A DNA stretch of 64,000 nt from Escherichia coli (lineage in GTDB: Bacteria > Pseudomonadota > Gammaproteobacteria > Enterobacterales > Enterobacteriaceae), in NCBI RefSeq assembly GCF_024700885.2, contig NZ_CP117016.1; one strand, given 5' to 3'. The position numbers were made by a program, and so were the translations under genes. Under the pieces are notes generated by a model. It ran no database searches, was not told the DNA's origin, and saw only the letters and a list, made by a program, of their open reading frames with translations. Every line of letters starts with the position of its first letter. Position 1 is the first letter of the stretch. Below, in pieces: positions 16,095-62,902 of this stretch.

Positions 16095-16170
16095 GGGTCG
16101 TTAGCTCAGTTGGTAGAGCAGTTGACTTTTAATCAATTGGTCGCAGGTTCGAATCCTGCACGACCCACCA
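16095..16170 (+). tRNA. lysT: tRNA-Lys (anticodon UUU)
   Basis: 76-nt cloverleaf GGGTCGTTAGCTCAGTTGGTAGAGC...ACGACCCACCA with CTTTTAA anticodon loop. Confidence 0.95.
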
Positions 16171-16198
16171 ATCGCTAAGGTGGACGCGGTAGTAAAAC

Positions 16199-16270
16199 GT
16201 GAAGGATAACGTTGCGTCAGCAACGGCCCGAAGGGCGAGACGAAGTCGAGTCATCCTGCACGACCCACCA
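16199..16270 (+). repeat. spacer repeat ending in a copy of the tRNA-Lys 3' terminus
   Basis: About 70 bp GTGAAGGATAACGTTGCGTCAGCAACGGCCCG...TCATCCTGCACGACCCACCA; second copy at 16694-16763. Confidence 0.7.
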
Positions 16271-16305
16271 CTAACCTAGTTAGTTGTAGTATCCAGCGTA
16301 GTATC

Positions 16306-16381
16306 GGGTGATTAGCTCAGCTGGGAGAGCACCTCCCTTACAAGGAGGGGGTCGGCGGTTCGATCCCGTCATCACCCACCA
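16306..16381 (+). tRNA. valT: tRNA-Val (anticodon UAC)
   Basis: 76-nt cloverleaf GGGTGATTAGCTCAGCTGGGAGAGC...CATCACCCACCA. Confidence 0.95.
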
Positions 16382-16383
16382 CC

Positions 16384-16459
16384 GGGTCGTTAGCTCAGTT
16401 GGTAGAGCAGTTGACTTTTAATCAATTGGTCGCAGGTTCGAATCCTGCACGACCCACCA
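16384..16459 (+). tRNA. lysW: tRNA-Lys (anticodon UUU)
   Basis: Identical to lysT. Confidence 0.95.
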
Positions 16460-16510
16460 CTAATTACGGTGGGTTCGGTGGAAGTAGTTTGTAGTATCCA
16501 GCGCAGTATC

Positions 16511-16586
16511 GGGTGATTAGCTCAGCTGGGAGAGCACCTCCCTTACAAGGAGGGGGTCGGCGGTTCGATCCCGTCATCACCCACCA
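16511..16586 (+). tRNA. valZ: tRNA-Val (anticodon UAC)
   Basis: Identical to valT. Confidence 0.95.
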
Positions 16587-16589
16587 CTC

Positions 16590-16665
16590 GGGTCGTTAGC
16601 TCAGTTGGTAGAGCAGTTGACTTTTAATCAATTGGTCGCAGGTTCGAATCCTGCACGACCCACCA
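16590..16665 (+). tRNA. lysY: tRNA-Lys (anticodon UUU)
   Basis: Identical to lysT. Confidence 0.95.
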
Positions 16666-16693
16666 ATTTTAACATCAAACTCAGATGTTAAGC

Positions 16694-16763
16694 GTGAAGG
16701 ATAACGTTGCGTCAGCAACGGCCCGTAGGGCGAGCGAAGCGAGTCATCCTGCACGACCCACCA
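16694..16763 (+). repeat. spacer repeat ending in a copy of the tRNA-Lys 3' terminus (second copy)
   Basis: Near-identical to 16199-16270. Confidence 0.7.
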
Positions 16764-16811
16764 ATTTTAAAGATTGGTTCCGAGTAGAAATCTTTCAGGT
16801 AACACCCGTAT

Positions 16812-16887
16812 GGGTCGTTAGCTCAGTTGGTAGAGCAGTTGACTTTTAATCAATTGGTCGCAGGTTCGAATCCTGCACGACCCACCA
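16812..16887 (+). tRNA. lysZ: tRNA-Lys (anticodon UUU)
   Basis: Identical to lysT. Confidence 0.95.
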
Positions 16888-16920
16888 TCCTGAATGATTA
16901 AAGCAGCATAATCCCGCAAG

Positions 16921-16996
16921 GGGTCGTTAGCTCAGTTGGTAGAGCAGTTGACTTTTAATCAATTGGTCGCAGGTTCGAATCCTGCACGACCCACCA
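16921..16996 (+). tRNA. lysQ: tRNA-Lys (anticodon UUU)
   Basis: Identical to lysT. Confidence 0.95.
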
Positions 16997-38699: not shown

Positions 38700-40961
38700 A
38701 TGATCAAGTTATCTGAAAAAAGCGTGTTTCTCGCCAGTAATAACGAAATAATTGCCGAAGAACATTTCACCGGCGAAATTAAAAAAGAAGAAGCAAAAAA
38801 AGGCACTATTGCCTGGTCTATTCTCTCTTCTCATAATACGTCCGGAAATATGGATAAACTTAAAATTAAGTTTGATTCATTAGCCTCTCACGATATTACC
38901 TTTGTTGGTATTGTACAGACCGCTAAAGCGTCCGGTATGGAACGTTTCCCGCTGCCGTATGTGCTGACCAACTGCCATAACTCACTCTGCGCCGTCGGCG
39001 GCACCATTAACGGTGATGACCATGTTTTTGGTTTATCGGCAGCGCAGCGTTATGGCGGTATTTTTGTGCCTCCGCATATTGCGGTCATCCATCAATATAT
39101 GCGTGAGATGATGGCAGGCGGCGGCAAAATGATCCTCGGGTCAGACAGCCACACCCGTTACGGTGCATTAGGGACAATGGCAGTCGGTGAGGGTGGCGGT
39201 GAGTTGGTAAAACAGCTGCTTAATGACACCTGGGATATCGACTATCCGGGCGTGGTTGCGGTGCATTTGACCGGAAAACCTGCGCCGCATGTGGGGCCAC
39301 AGGATGTGGCGCTGGCTATCATCGGTGCCGTGTTCAAAAACGGCTACGTCAAAAACAAAGTGATGGAATTCGTAGGTCCCGGTGTTGCTGCGCTCTCTAC
39401 CGATTTCCGTAACAGCGTTGACGTTATGACCACTGAAACGACCTGTTTAAGTTCTGTCTGGCAAACCGATGAAGAAGTCCATAACTGGCTGGCGCTGCAC
39501 GGTCGCGGCCAGGATTACTGCCAGCTTAACCCTCAACCGATGGCGTACTACGATGGCTGCATCAGCGTTGATTTAAGCGCCATCAAACCAATGATTGCGC
39601 TGCCGTTCCACCCGAGCAACGTATATGAAATCGACACACTGAACCAGAACCTGACCGACATTCTGCGTGAGATTGAAATTGAGTCCGAGCGCGTGGCGCA
39701 CGGTAAAGCCAAACTCTCGCTGCTGGATAAAGTCGAAAACGGTCGCCTGAAAGTGCAGCAGGGGATTATCGCGGGCTGTTCTGGCGGTAACTACGAAAAC
39801 GTCATCGCGGCGGCGAATGCACTGCGCGGTCAATCCTGTGGCAATGACACCTTCTCGCTGGCGGTTTATCCGTCATCACAGCCGGTGTTTATGGATCTCG
39901 CCAAAAAAGGTGTGGTAGCAGATTTGATTGGCGCAGGCGCAATCATCAGAACCGCGTTCTGCGGCCCATGCTTTGGCGCGGGCGATACGCCAATCAACAA
40001 CGGTTTGAGCATTCGCCACACCACGCGTAACTTCCCGAACCGCGAAGGCTCTAAGCCAGCCAATGGGCAGATGTCAGCGGTGGCGTTGATGGACGCTCGT
40101 TCTATCGCTGCGACTGCGGCAAACGGTGGCTATTTAACTTCTGCCAGCGAACTCGATTGCTGGGACAACGTGCCGGAGTACGCCTTCGATGTAACGCCGT
40201 ATAAAAACCGTGTTTATCAGGGCTTTGTGAAAGGGGCAACTCAGCAACCGCTGATTTACGGACCGAACATTAAAGACTGGCCGGAATTAGGTGCGCTGAC
40301 TGACAATATCGTCCTCAAAGTGTGCTCGAAGATCCTCGACGAAGTGACCACCACCGACGAACTGATCCCTTCCGGTGAAACCTCTTCTTATCGTTCAAAT
40401 CCGATTGGTCTGGCGGAGTTTACCCTGTCACGCCGCGATCCAGGTTATGTTGGCAGAAGTAAAGCGACTGCTGAGCTGGAAAATCAGCGTCTGGCGGGGA
40501 ATGTCAGCGAGCTGACAGAGGTGTTTGCGCGCATTAAGCAGATTGCTGGTCAGGAGCATATTGATCCGCTGCAAACTGAAATTGGCAGCATGGTCTATGC
40601 GGTGAAACCAGGCGATGGTTCTGCGCGTGAGCAGGCGGCGAGCTGCCAGCGTGTGATTGGCGGTCTGGCGAATATTGCCGAGGAGTACGCGACTAAACGC
40701 TACCGTTCTAACGTCATCAACTGGGGGATGTTACCGCTGCAAATGGCGGAAGCACCGAACTTTGACGTAGGTGATTACATTTACATCCCAGGCATTAAAG
40801 CGGCGCTGGATAATCCGGGTACGACGTTTAAAGGTTATGTGATCCATGAAGATGCGCCAGTAACAGAGATTACGCTCTATATGGAAAGTCTGACTGCTGA
40901 AGAGCGCGAGATTATCAAGGCGGGTAGTTTGATTAACTTCAATAAAAACCGTCAGATGTAA
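38700..40961 (+). CDS. ybhJ: aconitase-family protein YbhJ
   Basis: 753-aa protein starting [11 protein letters not shown]. Confidence 0.85.
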
Positions 40962-58000: not shown

Positions 58001-58185
58001 ACGCCACAATTCAAACGATACCAGAGCTTCTTATTCAGACACGAGGCAATCAGACCGAAGTGGCGAGGATGCTTTCCTGCGCAAGAGGAACAGTGCTCAA
58101 GTACAACCGAGACAGCAAAGGCGAGCGTCACGTAATAGTTAACGGCGTCCTGATGGTCAAACAGGGCAAGAGGGGTAGACCATGA
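57997..58185 (+). CDS. small putative DNA-binding protein (62 aa)
   Basis: Helix-turn-helix-like segment TRGNQTEVARMLSCARGTVLKY; overlapping start/stop with rusA and Q. Confidence 0.45.
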   Translation: MNATIQTIPELLIQTRGNQTEVARMLSCARGTVLKYNRDSKGERHVIVNGVLMVKQGKRGRP

Positions 58186-58805
58186 GACTCGAAAGTGTAG
58201 CTAAATTTCATTCGCCAAAAAGCCCGATGATGAGCGACTCACCACGGGCCACGGCTTCTGACTCTCTTTCCGGTACTGATGTGATGGCTGCTATGGGGAT
58301 GGCGCAATCACAAGCCGGATTCGGAATGGCTGCATTCTGCGGTAAGCATGAACTCAGCCAGAACGACAAACAAAAGGCTATCAACTATCTGATGCAATTT
58401 GCACACAAGGTATCGGGGAAATACCGTGGCGTGGCAAAACTCGAAGGAAATACTAAGGCAAAGGTACTGCAAGTGCTCGCAACATTCGCTTATGCGGATT
58501 ATTGCCGTAGTGCCGCGACGCCGGGCGCAAGATGCAGAGATTGCCACGGTACAGGCCGTGCGGTTGATATAGCAAAAACAGAGCAGTGGGGGAGAGTTGT
58601 CGAGAAAGAGTGCGGAAGATGCAAAGGCGTCGGCTATTCAAGGATGCCAGCAAGCGCAGCATATCGCGCTGTGACGATGCTAATCCCAAACCTTACCCAA
58701 CCCACCTGGTCACGCACCGTTAAGCCGCTGTATGACGCTCTGGTGGTGCAATGCCACAAAGAAGAGTCAATCGCAGATAACATTTTGAATGCGGTCACAC
58801 GTTAG
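58182..58805 (+). CDS. Q: late-gene antiterminator Q (lambda type)
   Basis: 207 aa with zinc-finger CRDCHGTGR...CGRCKGVGY; recognised as lambda Q. Confidence 0.85.
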   Translation: MRLESVAKFHSPKSPMMSDSPRATASDSLSGTDVMAAMGMAQSQAGFGMAAFCGKHELSQNDKQKAINYLMQFAHKVSGKYRGVAKLEGNTKAKVLQVLATFAYADYCRSAATPGARCRDCHGTGRAVDIAKTEQWGRVVEKECGRCKGVGYSRMPASAAYRAVTMLIPNLTQPTWSRTVKPLYDALVVQCHKEESIADNILNAVTR

Positions 58806-59017
58806 CGGCATGATTGCCACGGATGGCAACATCTTTACGGCATGATATTGACTTTTTGAATAAAGTTGGGTAAATTTGACCCAACGATGGGTTAATTCGC
58901 TCGTTGTGGTAGTGAGATGAAAAGAGGCGGCGCTTACTACCGATTCCGCCTAGTTGGTCACTTCGACGTATCGTCTGGAACTCCAACCATCGCAGGCTGA
59001 GAGGTCTGTAAAATGCA

Positions 59018-59076
59018 ATCCCGAAACAGTTCGCAGGTAATAGTTAGATCCTGCATAACGGTTTCGGGATTTTTTA
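59018..59076 (+). terminator. tR'-like terminator downstream of Q
   Basis: Long hairpin ATCCCGAAAC...GTTTCGGGAT followed by TTTTTTATTT. Confidence 0.7.
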
Positions 59077-59079
59077 TTT

Positions 59080-59154
59080 GGGTCAGTCGTATAAAGGTCA
59101 TTACGGAAGGCTGTTAACCTTCTTATCGTGGTTCGAGTCCACGCTGTCCCGCCA
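59080..59154 (+). tRNA. phage-encoded tRNA, anticodon GUU (Asn-type), slightly non-canonical
   Basis: Manual fold: acceptor GGGTCAG/CTGTCCC (one mismatch), D-loop with GG, anticodon arm GAAGG-CTGTTAA-CCTTC, T-arm CGTGG-TTCGAGT-CCACG, discriminator G, CCA. Confidence 0.55.
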
Positions 59155-59159
59155 AATAT

Positions 59160-59235
59160 GCTGGTTTAGCTCCAATGGTAGAGCAGTCGCCTTGTAAACG
59201 AATGGGTAGCGGTTCAAGTCCGTTAACCAGCACCA
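59160..59235 (+). tRNA. phage-encoded tRNA, anticodon UGU (Thr-type), weak anticodon stem
   Basis: Manual fold: acceptor GCTGGTT/AACCAGC perfect, D-arm GCTC-CAATGGTA-GAGC, T-loop TTCAAGT, CCA; anticodon stem has two mismatches. Confidence 0.5.
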
Positions 59236-59477
59236 TAACTGAGCCGTAGCCACTGACTATCCTGAATTCATCAGTGATAGTTACGCTGCGGCCTTCTACA
59301 CATGATATTCGTGAAAGCGGGTGGCAGGAGGTTGCGCTAACAACCTCATGCCGTTTTGCCCGTGCATATCGGTCACGAACAAATCTGATTACTAAACACA
59401 GTAGCCTGGATTTGTTCTATCAGTAATCGACCTTATTCCTAATTAAATAGAGCAAATCCCCTTATTGGGGGTAAGAC

Positions 59478-59801
59478 ATGAAGATGCCAGAAAAACATGA
59501 CCTGTTAGCCGCCATTCTCGCGGCAAAGGAACAAGGCATCGGGGCAATCCTTGCGTTTGCAATGGCGTACCTTCGCGGCAGATATAATGGCGGTGCGTTT
59601 ACAAAAACAGTAATCGACGCAACGATGTGCGCCATTATCGCCTGGTTCATTCGTGACCTTCTCGACTTCGCCGGACTAAGTAGCAACCTCGCTTATATAA
59701 CGAGCGTGTTCATCGGCTATATCGGTACTGACTCGATTGGTTCGCTTATCAAACGCTTCGCTGCTAAAAAAGCCGGAGTAGAAGATGGTGGAAATCAATA
59801 A
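59478..59801 (+). CDS. S: holin S (lambda S107/S105 dual start)
   Basis: [41 protein letters not shown], recognised as lambda S. Confidence 0.95.
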
Positions 59802-60261
59802 TCAACGTAAGGCGTTCCTCGATATGCTGGCGTGGTCAGAGGGGACTGATAACGGACGTCAGAAAACCAGAAATCATGGTTATGACGTCATTGTAGGCGG
59901 AGAGCTATTCACTGATTACTCCGATCACCCTCGCAAACTTGTCACGCTAAACCCCAAACTCAAATCAACAGCCGCCGGACGCTACCAGCTTCTTTCCCGT
60001 TGGTGGGATGCCTATCGTAAGCAGCTTGGCCTGAAAGACTTCTCTCCGAAAAGCCAGGACGCTGTGGCACTGCAACAGATTAAAGAGCGTGGCGCTTTAC
60101 CGATGATTGATCGCGGTGATATCCGTCAGGCAATCGACCGTTGCAGCAATATCTGGGCTTCACTGCCGGGGGCTGGTTATGGTCAGTTCGAGCATAAGGC
60201 TGACAGCCTGATTGCAAAATTCAAAGAAGCTGGCGGAACGGTCAGAGAGATTGAGGTATGA
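59785..60261 (+). CDS. R: endolysin R (lytic transglycosylase)
   Basis: 158-aa protein [34 protein letters not shown], recognised as lambda R. Confidence 0.95.
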
Positions 60262-60725
60262 GCAGAGTAACCGCGATTATCTCCGCTCTGGTTATCTGCA
60301 TCATCGCCTGTCTGTCATGGGCGGTTAATCATTACCGTGATAACGCCATCGCCTACAAAGAACAGCGAGATAAAAAAGTCAGTGAGCTGAAGCAGGCGAC
60401 CGCCACCATTACTGACATGCAGCAGCGCCAGCGTGCTGCTGATGCACTCGATGCTAAATACACGAAGGAGTTAGCTGATGCGAAAGCTGAAAATGATGCT
60501 CTTCGGCGCAAGCTTGATAATGGTGGTCGGGTGTTCGTCAAAGGAAAATGCCCTATGCCATCCTCAGCCGAAACCTCCAGCGCCTCCGGCATGGGCAATG
60601 ATGCCACCGTCGAACTCTCTCCAGTTGCTGGACGAAACGTTCTCGGTATCCGGGACGGAATCATCAGCGACCAAACAGCACTGAGAACGCTTCAGGAATA
60701 CATCAGGACGCAATGCCTTCGATGA
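60258..60725 (+). CDS. Rz: spanin inner-membrane subunit Rz (divergent C-terminal half)
   Basis: N-terminal [16 protein letters not shown]...[17 protein letters not shown] lambda-like; C-terminal part differs. Confidence 0.8.
60478..60684 (+). CDS. Rz1: spanin outer-membrane lipoprotein Rz1, embedded in Rz in +1 frame
   Basis: [21 protein letters not shown] lipobox followed by Pro-rich [11 protein letters not shown]. Confidence 0.65.
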
Positions 60726-60901
60726 TAGCGATAATTTTACTCATCATCCTTCACATCTGGCTCTGTAGACAGGGTGGTGATCACTTCTGGAGTGAATCCA
60801 GATTAAACATCTCATTGCTGATGCTTGATATTGAGCATCTTGCGCGCGGTAAGGGGCTGCGTTGAGATAAGAGCCAGTTCATTACAAATACCAGGATTTA
60901 G

Positions 60902-60924
60902 CCTCGCATTCGCGGGGTTTTTTA
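60902..60924 (+). terminator. rho-independent terminator after lysis cassette
   Basis: Hairpin CCTCGC-ATTC-GCGGGG followed by TTTTTTATT. Confidence 0.7.
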
Positions 60925-60947
60925 TTCCCAACTCCATAGGTAATTTT

Positions 60948-61427
60948 ATGACCCAGCATATTGGCGTAAAACTGATTAACGCCTTTCCGATGACGAGACA
61001 GGCATATAACGATTTTCGTGGCTGGCAGCTTCCTGCCGGAGAAAACGGCGAGGACGAAGGCTATCTGGTTGAATATCTGGATGGCGGAAAACCTAACACC
61101 GATCGCTTTGATGGCTACGTTAGCTGGAGTCCAAAAGAAGTATTCGAAAAGGCTTATCGTCCGGTATCAGGACTAAGTTTCGGCCTTGCCATGGAAGCGT
61201 TAAAACAGGGCAAAAGTTTGCAGCGGGCAGGATGGAATGGGAAAGACCAGTTTGTTTATCTCGTGAAAGGGGAAAAATTAGCGTCTGCGTTGGGTTATGG
61301 CTTTGGCGAATATGTTGGCGAGCCAACTTTCAATGACACGCTTGTATTGAAAAACTCACAGAACCGCCTTGCTACATGGGTTCCATCCATTGGCGACCTG
61401 ATGGCTGAAGACTGGCAAATCATTTAA
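60948..61427 (+). CDS. DUF2829-like (possible Tad2-like) protein, 159 aa
   Basis: Start at MTQHIGVKL after the terminator; motif FGLAMEALKQGKSLQRAGWNGKDQFVYL and C-terminal DLMAEDWQI fit my recollection of the DUF2829 signature. Confidence 0.5.
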   Translation: MTQHIGVKLINAFPMTRQAYNDFRGWQLPAGENGEDEGYLVEYLDGGKPNTDRFDGYVSWSPKEVFEKAYRPVSGLSFGLAMEALKQGKSLQRAGWNGKDQFVYLVKGEKLASALGYGFGEYVGEPTFNDTLVLKNSQNRLATWVPSIGDLMAEDWQII

Positions 61428-61660
61428 CCATGTAGGCATTACAAAGCCTATCTACGGGTGGGCTTGATAATGAAACCGGAATTTATTCTGGGCAACCAGT
61501 TACGGCAGTACAGCGAAGCAACCCAAGCCAGAAAGTGGGGAAATAACACTGGCAGCCACTGAAAGATGAACCTCCTGCCTTATGGCAAAAAAGATTCTTT
61601 GTGGTGGCGGACTGATGGAAAGACATCCTAATCAAGCAACCACTCCACAGGGTCATAATT

Positions 61661-62032
61661 ATGAACGACCAGCAAATCGAAAAAGAAATCGTTGAGAAAG
61701 GCAAAACGGCACCGCGCGTTACGCCAGACCATATCGAAGGAATTATTGCTCAGGAGGCATATTTCACAGCAGAGGATGGTGCCTTTGGCAAAGCCATAAA
61801 AGATAAACATACTGGCGGAGAGGTAAACTACCAGCCGCACGAATCACTTTCTCTGCTGACGTTCTGCGTCCTGGTGCTGCGCAACGGCTTCACCGTCACC
61901 GGAGAGAGTGCCTGTGCAAGTCCGGAAAATTTTGATGCAGAAATTGGTCGGAAGATTGCCCGGCAGAATGCTGTAAACAAAATCTGGATGCTCGAAGGTT
62001 ACTTGCTGAAGCAGAAGCTAAGCGAACAGTAG
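61661..62032 (+). CDS. hypothetical phage protein (123 aa)
   Basis: ORF between lysis and packaging modules. Confidence 0.5.
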   Translation: MNDQQIEKEIVEKGKTAPRVTPDHIEGIIAQEAYFTAEDGAFGKAIKDKHTGGEVNYQPHESLSLLTFCVLVLRNGFTVTGESACASPENFDAEIGRKIARQNAVNKIWMLEGYLLKQKLSEQ

Positions 62033-62135
62033 TTATTACAAAAGCCATTCCCTACAGAGTGGCTTTGATAATGGCTTATACCCTACACGGGATAACTTAA
62101 CTGATATCCCTTTTAACGGATAAACGGAGCCAACA

Positions 62136-62378
62136 ATGGCAGAGATTATTCCCATGACTGAAGAACAGAAATTCCAGTTAGAGATTTACAAACTGGTCAT
62201 GAACCAGAACGCAGCCGCAGAAGAAGCATTTCAATTCATTGGCACTGACGAACTGAAGCTTGAGCTATTCAAAATTCACTTCCAGTCAGGCGGCGCTAAT
62301 TCGGATATCACGACCCGCACTATCGAAGCGGTGCGTAAATCGAAGGAAGCGTTAGACCTGTTCACTACCGGAGCATGA
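62136..62378 (+). CDS. hypothetical phage protein (80 aa)
   Basis: ORF with GGAG ribosome-binding site. Confidence 0.45.
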   Translation: MAEIIPMTEEQKFQLEIYKLVMNQNAAAEEAFQFIGTDELKLELFKIHFQSGGANSDITTRTIEAVRKSKEALDLFTTGA

Positions 62379-62407
62379 TGCTCAACCTGAAATAACAAAT
62401 AAGTGAG

Positions 62408-62902
62408 ATGAATATGGCAGCACCAAAGGGCAACCGATTTTGGGAGGCCCGCAGTAGTCATGGGCGAAATCCTAAATTCGAATCGCCCGAGGCGCTGTGG
62501 GCTGCTTGTTGTGAATACTTCGAGTGGGCTGATGATAACCCGCTATGGGAGGGTAAGGTATTTTCATATCAGGGAGAAATAATTAAGGCTAACGTTCCTA
62601 AGATGCGAGCCATGACTATTTCAGGATTGTGTACCTTCCTTGATATCACCAGGCAAACATGGGGAACCTTCCGGTCAATGGAAGGTTTTTCTGACGTCAC
62701 ATCACGAGCGGAAGACATCATCTACGACCAGAAATTCTCTGGCGCAGCCGCTGACCTTCTCAACGCTAACATCATCGCCCGTGATTTGGGCCTCAAAGAG
62801 CAGTCGCAAGTTGAAGACGTGACACCTGATAAGGGAGATCGCGATAAGCGGCGCTCTCGTATCAAGGAGCTATTCAACCGTGGAACTGGACGCGATTCTT
62901 GA
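62408..62902 (+). CDS. terminase small subunit (P22 gp3-like)
   Basis: 164-aa protein [40 protein letters not shown] immediately upstream of large terminase. Confidence 0.65.

Follow-up and report, generated by a model that had tools for sequence, protein, structure and literature searches.

The stretch of Escherichia coli DNA analyzed here (64,000 nucleotides; the window) carries, at its right end, the late region of a chromosomal P22-like (Lederbergvirus-type) prophage. Between the lysis and packaging modules of this prophage, two copies of a two-helix hairpin, H1 (61437–61472, + strand) and H2 (62034–62073, + strand), each form the 3′ boundary of a slot that holds an accessory gene. Comparison with related loci showed that selection maintains the sense-strand fold of the hairpin, which is a discrete element, and that the hairpins coincide with mosaic joints of cargo exchange. 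The region is best explained as an accessory-gene hotspot with two cargo slots, and the hairpin itself seems to be undescribed. An earlier note on this DNA had reported two unassigned open reading frames (ORFs) between Rz and the small terminase gene, each followed by a similar motif able to form an AAGCC/GGCTT hairpin, and had proposed that the motif could be a terminator or a recombination linker. Both ORFs (61661–62032, 123 amino acids; 62136–62378, 80 amino acids) are located where the note placed them.

The composite pattern ATTACAAA...TGATAATG had exactly two matches in the 64 kb, at 61438–61472 and 62035–62073, and none in 100 shuffled sequences. Two covariance models likewise found only H1 and H2 in the window, with 50–57 bits on the + strand (H1, 54.7 and 52.6; H2, 57 and 49.7) and 22–26 bits on the − strand. 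H1 reads CAUUA-CA-AAGCCUAUC-[UACG]-GGGUGGGCUU-GA-UAAUG and H2 reads UAUUA-CA-AAAGCCAUUC-[CCUACA]-GAGUGGCUUU-GA-UAAUG. Both have an outer stem of 5 bp (yAUUA/UAAUG), or 6–8 bp with the flanks, an inner stem of 9–10 bp, and a loop of 4–6 nt. The H2 helix can be extended to 62031–62076 (8+10 bp), and its foot lies 1 nt past the TAG stop codon of the 123-amino-acid gene, an Acb4-family member. H1 folds with −18.3 kcal/mol (z −3.5) and H2 with −20.6 kcal/mol (z −5.1), whereas the reverse-strand folds are weaker (−10.4 and −14.3 kcal/mol, respectively). The shared motif of the earlier note is therefore present in two copies and does form hairpins, but the second copy ends at 62073 rather than 62081, and the structure is larger than the AAGCC/GGCTT stem, with two helices, ~36–40 nt, and −18 to −21 kcal/mol. 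Hairpins follow the DUF2829/Tad2-like gene and the 123-amino-acid gene, but there is none after the 80-amino-acid gene.

For comparison, 124 related loci were collected via an anchor in the leader of the downstream DUF2560 gene; because the anchor flanks the hairpin and is independent of it, this sampling is unbiased for structure. Among these loci, 38 distinct hairpin sequences were present, which fall into four types (H1 to H4). In a MAFFT alignment of the 38 variants, 97.0% of the pair cells held standard pairs and double changes were found at 7 of the 15 pairs, compared with 34–49% paired in a slid control in which the partner was moved by 1–3 columns. Across the whole family, the outer stem has 5–6 bp, the 2×2 internal loop CA/GA is near-invariant, the inner stem of 7–10 bp covaries, and the loop has 3–7 nt. 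Phage HK620, which does not have the Acb4-type gene, carries the variant UAUUG-CA-GAGGCCAUUC-AAU-GAGUGGUCUC-GA-CAAUG at the same place, with three A-U pairs changed to G-C pairs and the CA/GA loop retained. Model R1, built from the 38 variants, detected the same architecture near distant DUF2560 homologues, where the flanks can no longer be aligned, and there the inner stems are new (GAGCAUC/GGUGCUC, AAGCGUC/GGCGCUU, and GCAGCCAUUC/GAGUGGCUGC). An unanchored scan of viral contigs for CATTACA-N18-28-GATAATG returned mostly chance matches, along with the further stem types GCAGCCCUUC/GAGGGGCUGC and GCAGGCAUUC/GAGUGCCUGC. Among 116 newly fetched loci, only 10 pattern matches passed the pairing filter, eight of which had the full stem with at least 10 inner pairs. 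RNAalifold recovered the same two-helix fold from 18 distinct types aligned without reference to structure; here 97.2% of cells pair, compensatory changes occur in 9 of 16 pairs, and the covariation score is 0.59, versus 0.24 for shuffled and no more than 0.13 for slid controls.

The fold is strand specific. Non-Watson-Crick pairs, read on the + strand, comprise 75 G·U versus 8 A·C (37 versus 1 in the wide set of types). Folding across the hairpins gave −18 to −24 kcal/mol on the + strand and −10 to −14 kcal/mol on the − strand, and the covariance models scored the + strand ~27 bits above the − strand. Because a palindrome that exists only as duplex would lack the G·U bias, selection acts on the single-stranded fold of the sense strand, which goes beyond what the earlier note foresaw. 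Hardly any variation is seen in the internal loop (C,A/G,A), at the base (AUUA/UAAU), or at the apex, where CAUYY...RRGUG contains a fixed U·G pair.

The hairpin is present in phages P22, Sf6, HK620, HK97, Stx2 phage 1717, and Salmonella phage Oslo; the records of these six phages have no annotation at the hairpin positions. P22 carries an H3 variant (NC_002371, 40311–40347). The siphovirus HK97 has H1, the spacer that follows it, and H3, upstream of a truncated DUF2560 gene and an HNH gene; Stx2 phage 1717 carries H1, as does Oslo, where both flanks are unrelated. Of the complete genomes of E. coli, 705 of 5426 (at least 13%) each carry 1–3 near-identical copies of H1. In ~1.15 Mb of related loci, the model located the hairpin at the lysis-packaging junction only, with 1–2 copies per locus. 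It also occurs in loci of distant DUF2560 homologues (35–44% protein identity); in more distant phages, it stands directly after DUF2560, between a spanin-region gene and the small terminase gene, or on both sides of DUF2560. Usually the hairpin begins immediately past the end of an accessory ORF; a stop codon lies 0–2 nt from the hairpin foot in at least eight unrelated upstream ORFs, and in seven contexts the hairpin ends 3–15 nt before the Shine-Dalgarno (SD) sequence of the next gene, or 16–26 nt before its ATG. Since stop codon and SD are both close, the hairpin is an intercistronic unit able to fill the whole intergenic gap. It was not found in the cryptic prophages DLP12 and Qin of strain K-12.

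Two further matches were considered. A weak model match in phage mEpX1 (L013, 5084–5111, minus strand) lies antisense inside a DnaC-like ORF and was rejected as chance. One locus (L117, 6300–6335) has a single instance with the same outer design, CATTA-CA-GGATGCA...TGCATCC-AT-TAATG, after an HNH homing-endonuclease-like gene and upstream of the holin gene (21.9 bits, E 0.009–0.05).

Around the hairpins, gene content is highly variable, with ~70 gene arrangements between Rz and DUF2560 among the 124 loci. They follow a single scheme: Rz, (gene 65), slot A, H1, a spacer of ~170 or ~225 nt, slot B, H2 or H3, the DUF2560 leader, and DUF2560. Slot A is empty or holds a Tad2-like gene, KilA-N (hkbK) with or without hkbL, T5orf172/MUG113, a trypsin-like peptidase, or uncharacterized genes. 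When slot B is empty the hairpin is always H3, and when it is filled (Acb4-type, DUF551, KilA-N, or uncharacterized genes) the hairpin is always H2. The 194 hairpin instances have 18 upstream flank classes versus five downstream, with class D1 downstream of 118 of the 194; the hairpin is thus the fixed right-hand border of a variable slot. In the window, slot A holds the DUF2829/Tad2-like gene (60948–61427, + strand, 159 amino acids; PF11195, Tad2-like, E 6e-22) and slot B holds the Acb4-family gene (61661–62032, + strand).

The left edge of slot A is marked by a third, partial copy of the motif, the half-site CATTACAAA (60880–60888, + strand), which is identical to the H1 5′ arm and consists of the 5′ arm only. 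In Sf6, gagccagttCATTACAAA runs directly into a full H1 with no cargo. In the window and in HK620, the same nine bases are followed by TACCAGG..., a terminator, and the cargo, and CATTACAAA recurs at the start of H1. Because CATTACAAA stands on both sides, the Sf6-type and cargo-bearing arrangements differ by an event between 9-bp direct repeats. In 11 loci H1 is fused directly to the usual downstream flank of H2, with the spacer and slot B deleted, and one locus carries an H1/H2 chimera. The fusions, the chimera, and the direct-repeat difference indicate that the hairpins take part in rearrangements. A recombination linker at cargo boundaries, one of the two proposals of the earlier note, is supported: the hairpins stand exactly where homology breaks, with 18 upstream versus 5 downstream flank classes and with chimeric and fused hairpins, in keeping with a role for the hairpin as a recombination joint. 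A larger hairpin, formed by the half-site and the start region of the Tad2-like gene, was considered and rejected since it is not conserved in HK620.

The terminator-like hairpin after the half-site, GCCTCGCATTCGCGGGG followed by a T-run (60900–60927, + strand; hairpin 60900–60919), lies upstream of the Tad2-like gene. It has eight pairs, five of them G-C, and the tail TTTTTTATT in the terminator scan, and the same hairpin is kept before differing cargos in HK620, HK97, and Stx2 phage 1717. Between H1 and slot B is a 188-nt non-coding spacer (61473–61660, + strand), conserved in relatives (62 distinct variants, which hardly differ in the 3′ ~100 nt) and also found in HK97 and P22. Wherever slot B holds cargo, the cargo begins directly after ...GGAAAGACATC. 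A coding function for the spacer was rejected because its only ATG is lost in several loci, 1-nt indels occur, and there is no SD. Promoter prediction gave no match in the spacer, which holds a CCUCC (anti-SD-like) run. A perfect Chi site, GCTGGTGG, is found within the H1 variant of mEpX1 (L013; CATTACAAAGCTCATCTGCTGGTGGGCTTGATAATG), which lies 634 nt upstream of the anchor. Chi-likeness of the H1 3′ arm was rejected as a feature; the perfect GCTGGTGG occurs in this one variant only, the others are 1–2 mismatches off, and the likeness is probably coincidental, although it bears on a recombination joint.

We hypothesize that the hairpin acts in the late polycistronic mRNA as a sense-strand intercistronic stem-loop. 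There it would either block 3′ exonucleases as a barrier or direct RNase III-type cleavage as a processing signal, and the stability and expression of the upstream cargo message would be set independently of the downstream packaging genes. At the DNA level, the hairpin plus its downstream flank may provide the right-hand patch of homology through which recombination swaps or deletes cargo, since both are conserved across phages. An RNA stem-loop is the simplest reading because the element is always in the sense orientation, has sense-specific wobbles, and is preceded by a stop codon and followed by the next ribosome-binding site. Intercistronic stem-loops of this general kind include the RNase III processing hairpins of phage T7 and the mRNA-stabilizing repetitive extragenic palindromes and bacterial interspersed mosaic elements (REP/BIME). 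Like the T7 sites, the hairpin lies between cistrons of a polycistronic phage mRNA and has two helical segments around an internal loop, but its distant variants are shorter and its basal and apical sequences are unusually conserved. Unlike REP/BIME, it is not dispersed: there are two copies in 64 kb, 1–3 per E. coli genome, and 1–2 per phage locus at one junction. RNase III sites have roughly 20–22 bp of helix, often with an internal loop. H2 and H3 have 8+2+10, or ~20 bp-equivalents, a length not far from the ~22 bp that the enzyme accommodates (PMC6212723). Taken whole, a cargo hotspot with fold-selected hairpins that function in mRNA processing or stability is the best explanation of these data, although we hold it tentatively and at a little less than an even chance.

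Several points weigh against the mRNA stem-loop. The RNA-level role is one that we infer only from strand asymmetry, sense orientation, and position, and G·T pairs stabilize single-stranded DNA hairpins too, leaving room for a single-stranded DNA role. H1 and the distant types reach ~14–18 bp-equivalents, and the distant variants, at ~14–16, are short for a classical RNase III site. The conserved basal AUUACA/GAUAAU and apical CAUYY/RRGUG point to a candidate sequence-specific partner, and such conservation speaks against a plain exonuclease barrier because barriers of that kind do not need it. Conservation is stronger in the 3′ arm (entropy 0.59, versus 0.80 for the 5′ arm), which usually ends in AUG, a pattern that may fit masking of a ribosome-binding site about as well. 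Finally, the wide sets overall (96.8–97.2% paired; 9–10 compensatory pairs of 15–16; covariation 0.50–0.59 versus 0.23–0.24 shuffled) are in part biased toward the fold, some of their rows having come from a structure-aware model or from a pattern plus pairing filter.

The alternative that survives best, though we regard it as unlikely, is a translational device. Here the hairpin would hide a weak ribosome-binding region (GRGUGG, then 7–8 nt, then AUG on the 3′ arm) that opens only when a ribosome terminates at the abutting stop codon, and so would couple or insulate translation over the cargo boundary. The stop codon 0–2 nt from the foot in at least eight unrelated genes fits this arrangement, as do the more conserved 3′ arm and the wobbles, whose G is on the 3′ arm in every case. 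Every hairpin of the P22-like set has the terminal AUG, which is followed by favorable second codons (AAA, GCU) and which, in one locus (L136), is in frame with the small-terminase ORF. However, the AUG is missing in locus L130 (AAUA) and loci L139–141 (AAUU), and the ORFs that it opens have 3, 9, 12, or 30 codons and are not conserved. GAGUGG and GGGUGG, by reading of the sequences, match the anti-SD poorly, the downstream genes have a good SD of their own, and some hairpins come after terminators rather than ORFs.

An improbable alternative is a DNA-level cassette site, in which the + strand folds as single-stranded DNA and is recognized by a host or phage nuclease or recombinase, making "ORF + hairpin" a mobile unit like attC or HUH/REP systems. 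The likeness to integron attC lies in an imperfect hairpin with a conserved base, a fixed unpaired position or internal mismatch, a variable centre and apical stem, and a strand-specific fold, beginning at the stop codon of a promoter-less cargo ORF as integron cassettes do. Cargo is variable upstream of a fixed hairpin, the 9-bp direct repeat CATTACAAA flanks slot A cargo on both sides, and GTAG often precedes the foot even when it is not a stop codon (after the Tad2-like gene). Against this, the arms are yATTACA...GAyAATG and do not fit the attC R-box consensus (R″/R′ RYYYAAC...GTTRRRY). Each phage has 1–2 copies and at most two slots, all at one junction, with no many-cassette arrays. The hairpin type tracks the backbone flank and not the cargo, H3 always comes after an empty spacer, and H2 sub-variants track the upstream flank class. 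No integron integrase is linked to the hairpins, the integrases of the carrier phages not having been searched. The carriers differ in packaging type and lineage, and no common phage enzyme is evident, their recombination genes not having been compared. Ordinary short-homology recombination accounts for the fusions and deletions.

Equally improbable, in our estimate, is a passive linker, a functionless relic such as a decayed terminator kept within the homology arms of module exchange. This reading draws on the lambdoid "boundary sequences" proposed for HK620 and annotated as bsq in the Sf6 record, which the hairpin most resembles among known systems. Both are short sequences at module boundaries, conserved between phages exactly where the flanking homology breaks, and both are proposed foci of recombination; in Oslo both flanks are unrelated. 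The location at mosaic joints and the resemblance of the half-site plus terminator to the 5′ part of the hairpin are also in keeping with a relic. The HK620 paper reportedly described seven boundary sequences, all of them in the metabolic domain. In the part of Sf6 that was examined, only bsq7 is annotated, inside Rz, and the HK620, HK97, and P22 records have no bsq at the hairpins. What separates the hairpin from boundary sequences is its covarying, strand-specific secondary structure: compensatory double changes hold ~97% pairing across lineages with unalignable flanks, and a strong + strand wobble bias is unexpected for a relic that exists only as duplex.

More doubtful still is the proposal that a dedicated factor, of host or phage, recognizes the hairpin, acts on its folded single strand, and drives an integron-like, integrase-independent cassette exchange of Tad2, Acb4, and similar genes.

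An intrinsic (Rho-independent) terminator after each cargo gene, the other proposal of the earlier note, is very improbable, and the evidence shows that the hairpin is not one: stable stem-loops stand directly after ORFs and H1 and H2 have short A/U-rich flanks, but their tails, GAUAAUG or GACAAUG, lack a U-tract, the terminator scan flagged 60900–60919 and neither H1 nor H2, H3 and H4 have G-C pairs in place of the flanking A-U pairs, several loci have a true T-run terminator immediately 5′ of H2, and the late operon that contains the hairpins is Q-antiterminated and has essential packaging genes downstream of them.

Another comparison is with the promoter early stem-loop (PeSL) cassettes of T4-type phages, which combine an early promoter with a stem-loop terminator and occur in many copies (PMC2839356, PMC4122927). 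Both are repeated, conserved stem-loop motifs that flank variable ORFs in hyperplastic regions and bring about modular shuffling, but the hairpin is no terminator, has only 1–2 copies, and lies in a late operon. A scan for sigma-70-like promoters found none at the hairpins. An Rfam covariance scan of 58700–62500 at E values up to 1 returned two tRNAs and chance-level matches, with none at the hairpins or the spacer. Literature searches on the motif strings returned only unrelated primer matches, and the boundary-sequence and hotspot literature, including the epsilon34 and accessory-gene papers, does not mention the element.

The slot B gene can be assigned to a family. The 123-amino-acid protein matched PF13876 (Phage_gp49_66; "N4 Gp49 / Sf6 gene 66") across the whole profile, positions 1–82 of 82, with 119.6 bits (cut-off 27, E 8.4e-35). 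This family has been characterized as the Acb4 family of sponges that counter the cyclic oligonucleotide-based antiphage signaling system (CBASS). Its founder, SPO1 Acb4, sequesters CBASS cyclic dinucleotides as a tetrameric sponge; there are ~1,300 family members, and eight of the eight homologues assayed bound 3′3′-cyclic GMP-AMP (3′3′-cGAMP) (10.1101/2024.12.30.630793). A Tad2-like gene adjoins the 123-amino-acid gene, and in a weak alignment of its protein with the core of the SPO1 Acb4 chain (PDB: 9e4w; E 0.006, residues 67–108) equivalents of the contact residues F48, F62, and I66 are retained. The adenine pocket corresponds to F62 and I66, with N63 changed to D. E49, V56, Y57, and T70 are changed (to T, C, A, and I, respectively), so that only 3–4 of 8 mapped ligand-contact residues are conserved, and the protein also differs in an extra N-terminal extension of ~60 amino acids and a variable middle segment. 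It is probably a tetrameric sponge that sequesters CBASS cyclic-dinucleotide signals. The search for defense and anti-defense families suggested by the earlier note thus placed this protein in the Acb4 family, while the 80-amino-acid protein is DUF2560 with no PADLOC match.

The Acb4-family gene is a mosaic relative to Sf6 gene 66 (L002, 1963–2343): near-identity is confined to the first ~19 and the last ~60 residues, with an unrelated segment at residues ~20–65 in place of the Sf6 counterpart. Pfam, including Sequestin PF21825, detected no domain in the N-terminal 65 amino acids of this protein or in the N-terminal 75 amino acids of the Tad2-like protein. Positions 1–65 of PHROG 9467 match the Tad2-like protein N-terminal domain (~75 amino acids, 60948–61172), and positions 98–149 match the C-terminal Acb4 core of the 123-amino-acid protein; since one PHROG matches both, proteins exist that join the Tad2-like N-domain to an Acb4 core, which suggests that sponge proteins shuffle domains. 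Single proteins in which a Tad2 and an Acb4 domain are fused are frequent, and the adjoining Tad2-like and Acb4-family genes here fit those fusions (10.1101/2025.07.12.664507). The record of Escherichia phage Huey (L001, PQ850609) labels the Tad2-like and Acb4-family genes "anti-CRISPR protein"; this looks like automated transfer, and the family assignments made here do not support the label.

The 80-amino-acid protein (62136–62378, + strand), also listed previously as unassigned, belongs to a named family, DUF2560 (PF10834; 147.7 bits, cut-off 25, E 1e-43), with counterparts in P22 (orf80), HK620 (hkbM), and Sf6 (gene 67). This is a small family: a set of 1.8 billion proteins contains 42 representative clusters of it. 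A structure model has four helices (predicted local distance difference test score, 90.8), a fold search of the PDB with this model found no match (best E ~1), and there was no match to the protein in PHROG annotation, NCBIfam, or PADLOC. In most of the P22-like phages examined, the gene that comes directly after it is that of the small terminase, and distant homologues (35–44% identity) lie between the lysis genes and the small terminase in most loci examined. Because this position is kept, DUF2560 behaves as a semi-fixed gene of the junction and not as cargo. Its leader in the window (62074–62135, + strand; flank class D1) has a CCCTACA repeat and a small second hairpin. The CCCTACA of the H2 loop occurs twice, at 62049–62055 and 62081–62087, and the AUG that closes H2 opens a 9-codon mini-ORF, MAYTLHGIT* (62071–62100), which overlaps the second hairpin (UUAU-A-CCC/GGG-AUAA) and the repeat. 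In P22 (L127, 1945–2208; NC_002371, ~40444–40707), an insertion between H3 and orf80 breaks the conserved leader directly after GCTTATACC; it contains an apparent minus-strand ORF with its own terminator-like hairpin, where the RefSeq record annotates no gene.

The surrounding order is that of a late region: the Q antiterminator gene (58182–58805), two tRNA genes, then holin, endolysin, and Rz (60258–60725), and, beyond DUF2560, the gp3-type small terminase gene (62408–62902) followed by the large terminase gene. The tRNAs, tRNA-Asn(GTT) and tRNA-Thr(TGT), are at 59080–59235, between the Q and holin genes, and Sf6 annotates a tRNA-Thr at the equivalent place. A hydrophobic ORF of 50 amino acids (60713–60865), a homologue of Sf6 "gene 65", overlaps the end of Rz; such an ORF is found in about half of the related loci and is absent from HK97, Stx2 phage 1717, and P22. 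The segment is 100% identical in strains MLI114 and O166:H15 JNE21-009. Elsewhere in the window, an array of seven tRNA genes (16095–16996; Lys-Val-Lys-Val-Lys-Lys-Lys), presumably in host chromosome, resembles the E. coli lysT-valT operon.

In P22-like and other lambdoid phages, accessory and anti-defense genes are exchanged often at the junction of the lysis and packaging modules, with Tad2, Acb4, KilA-N, T5orf172, DUF551, and trypsin-like peptidase among the cargo met there. The gene assignments are to known families; the element at their boundaries seems to be undescribed. A linker at a mosaic joint would, taken alone, probably not astonish a specialist. Should the hairpin prove to be recognized by a dedicated factor as folded single-stranded DNA, lambdoid phages would trade anti-defense genes by an integron-like, integrase-independent exchange. 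The conserved hairpin is a precise landmark for finding new anti-defense cargo in prophages and a concrete sequence for studying cassette swapping in mosaic phage genomes, and it is a candidate regulatory RNA element, directly testable in the model phages P22, Sf6, HK620, and HK97.

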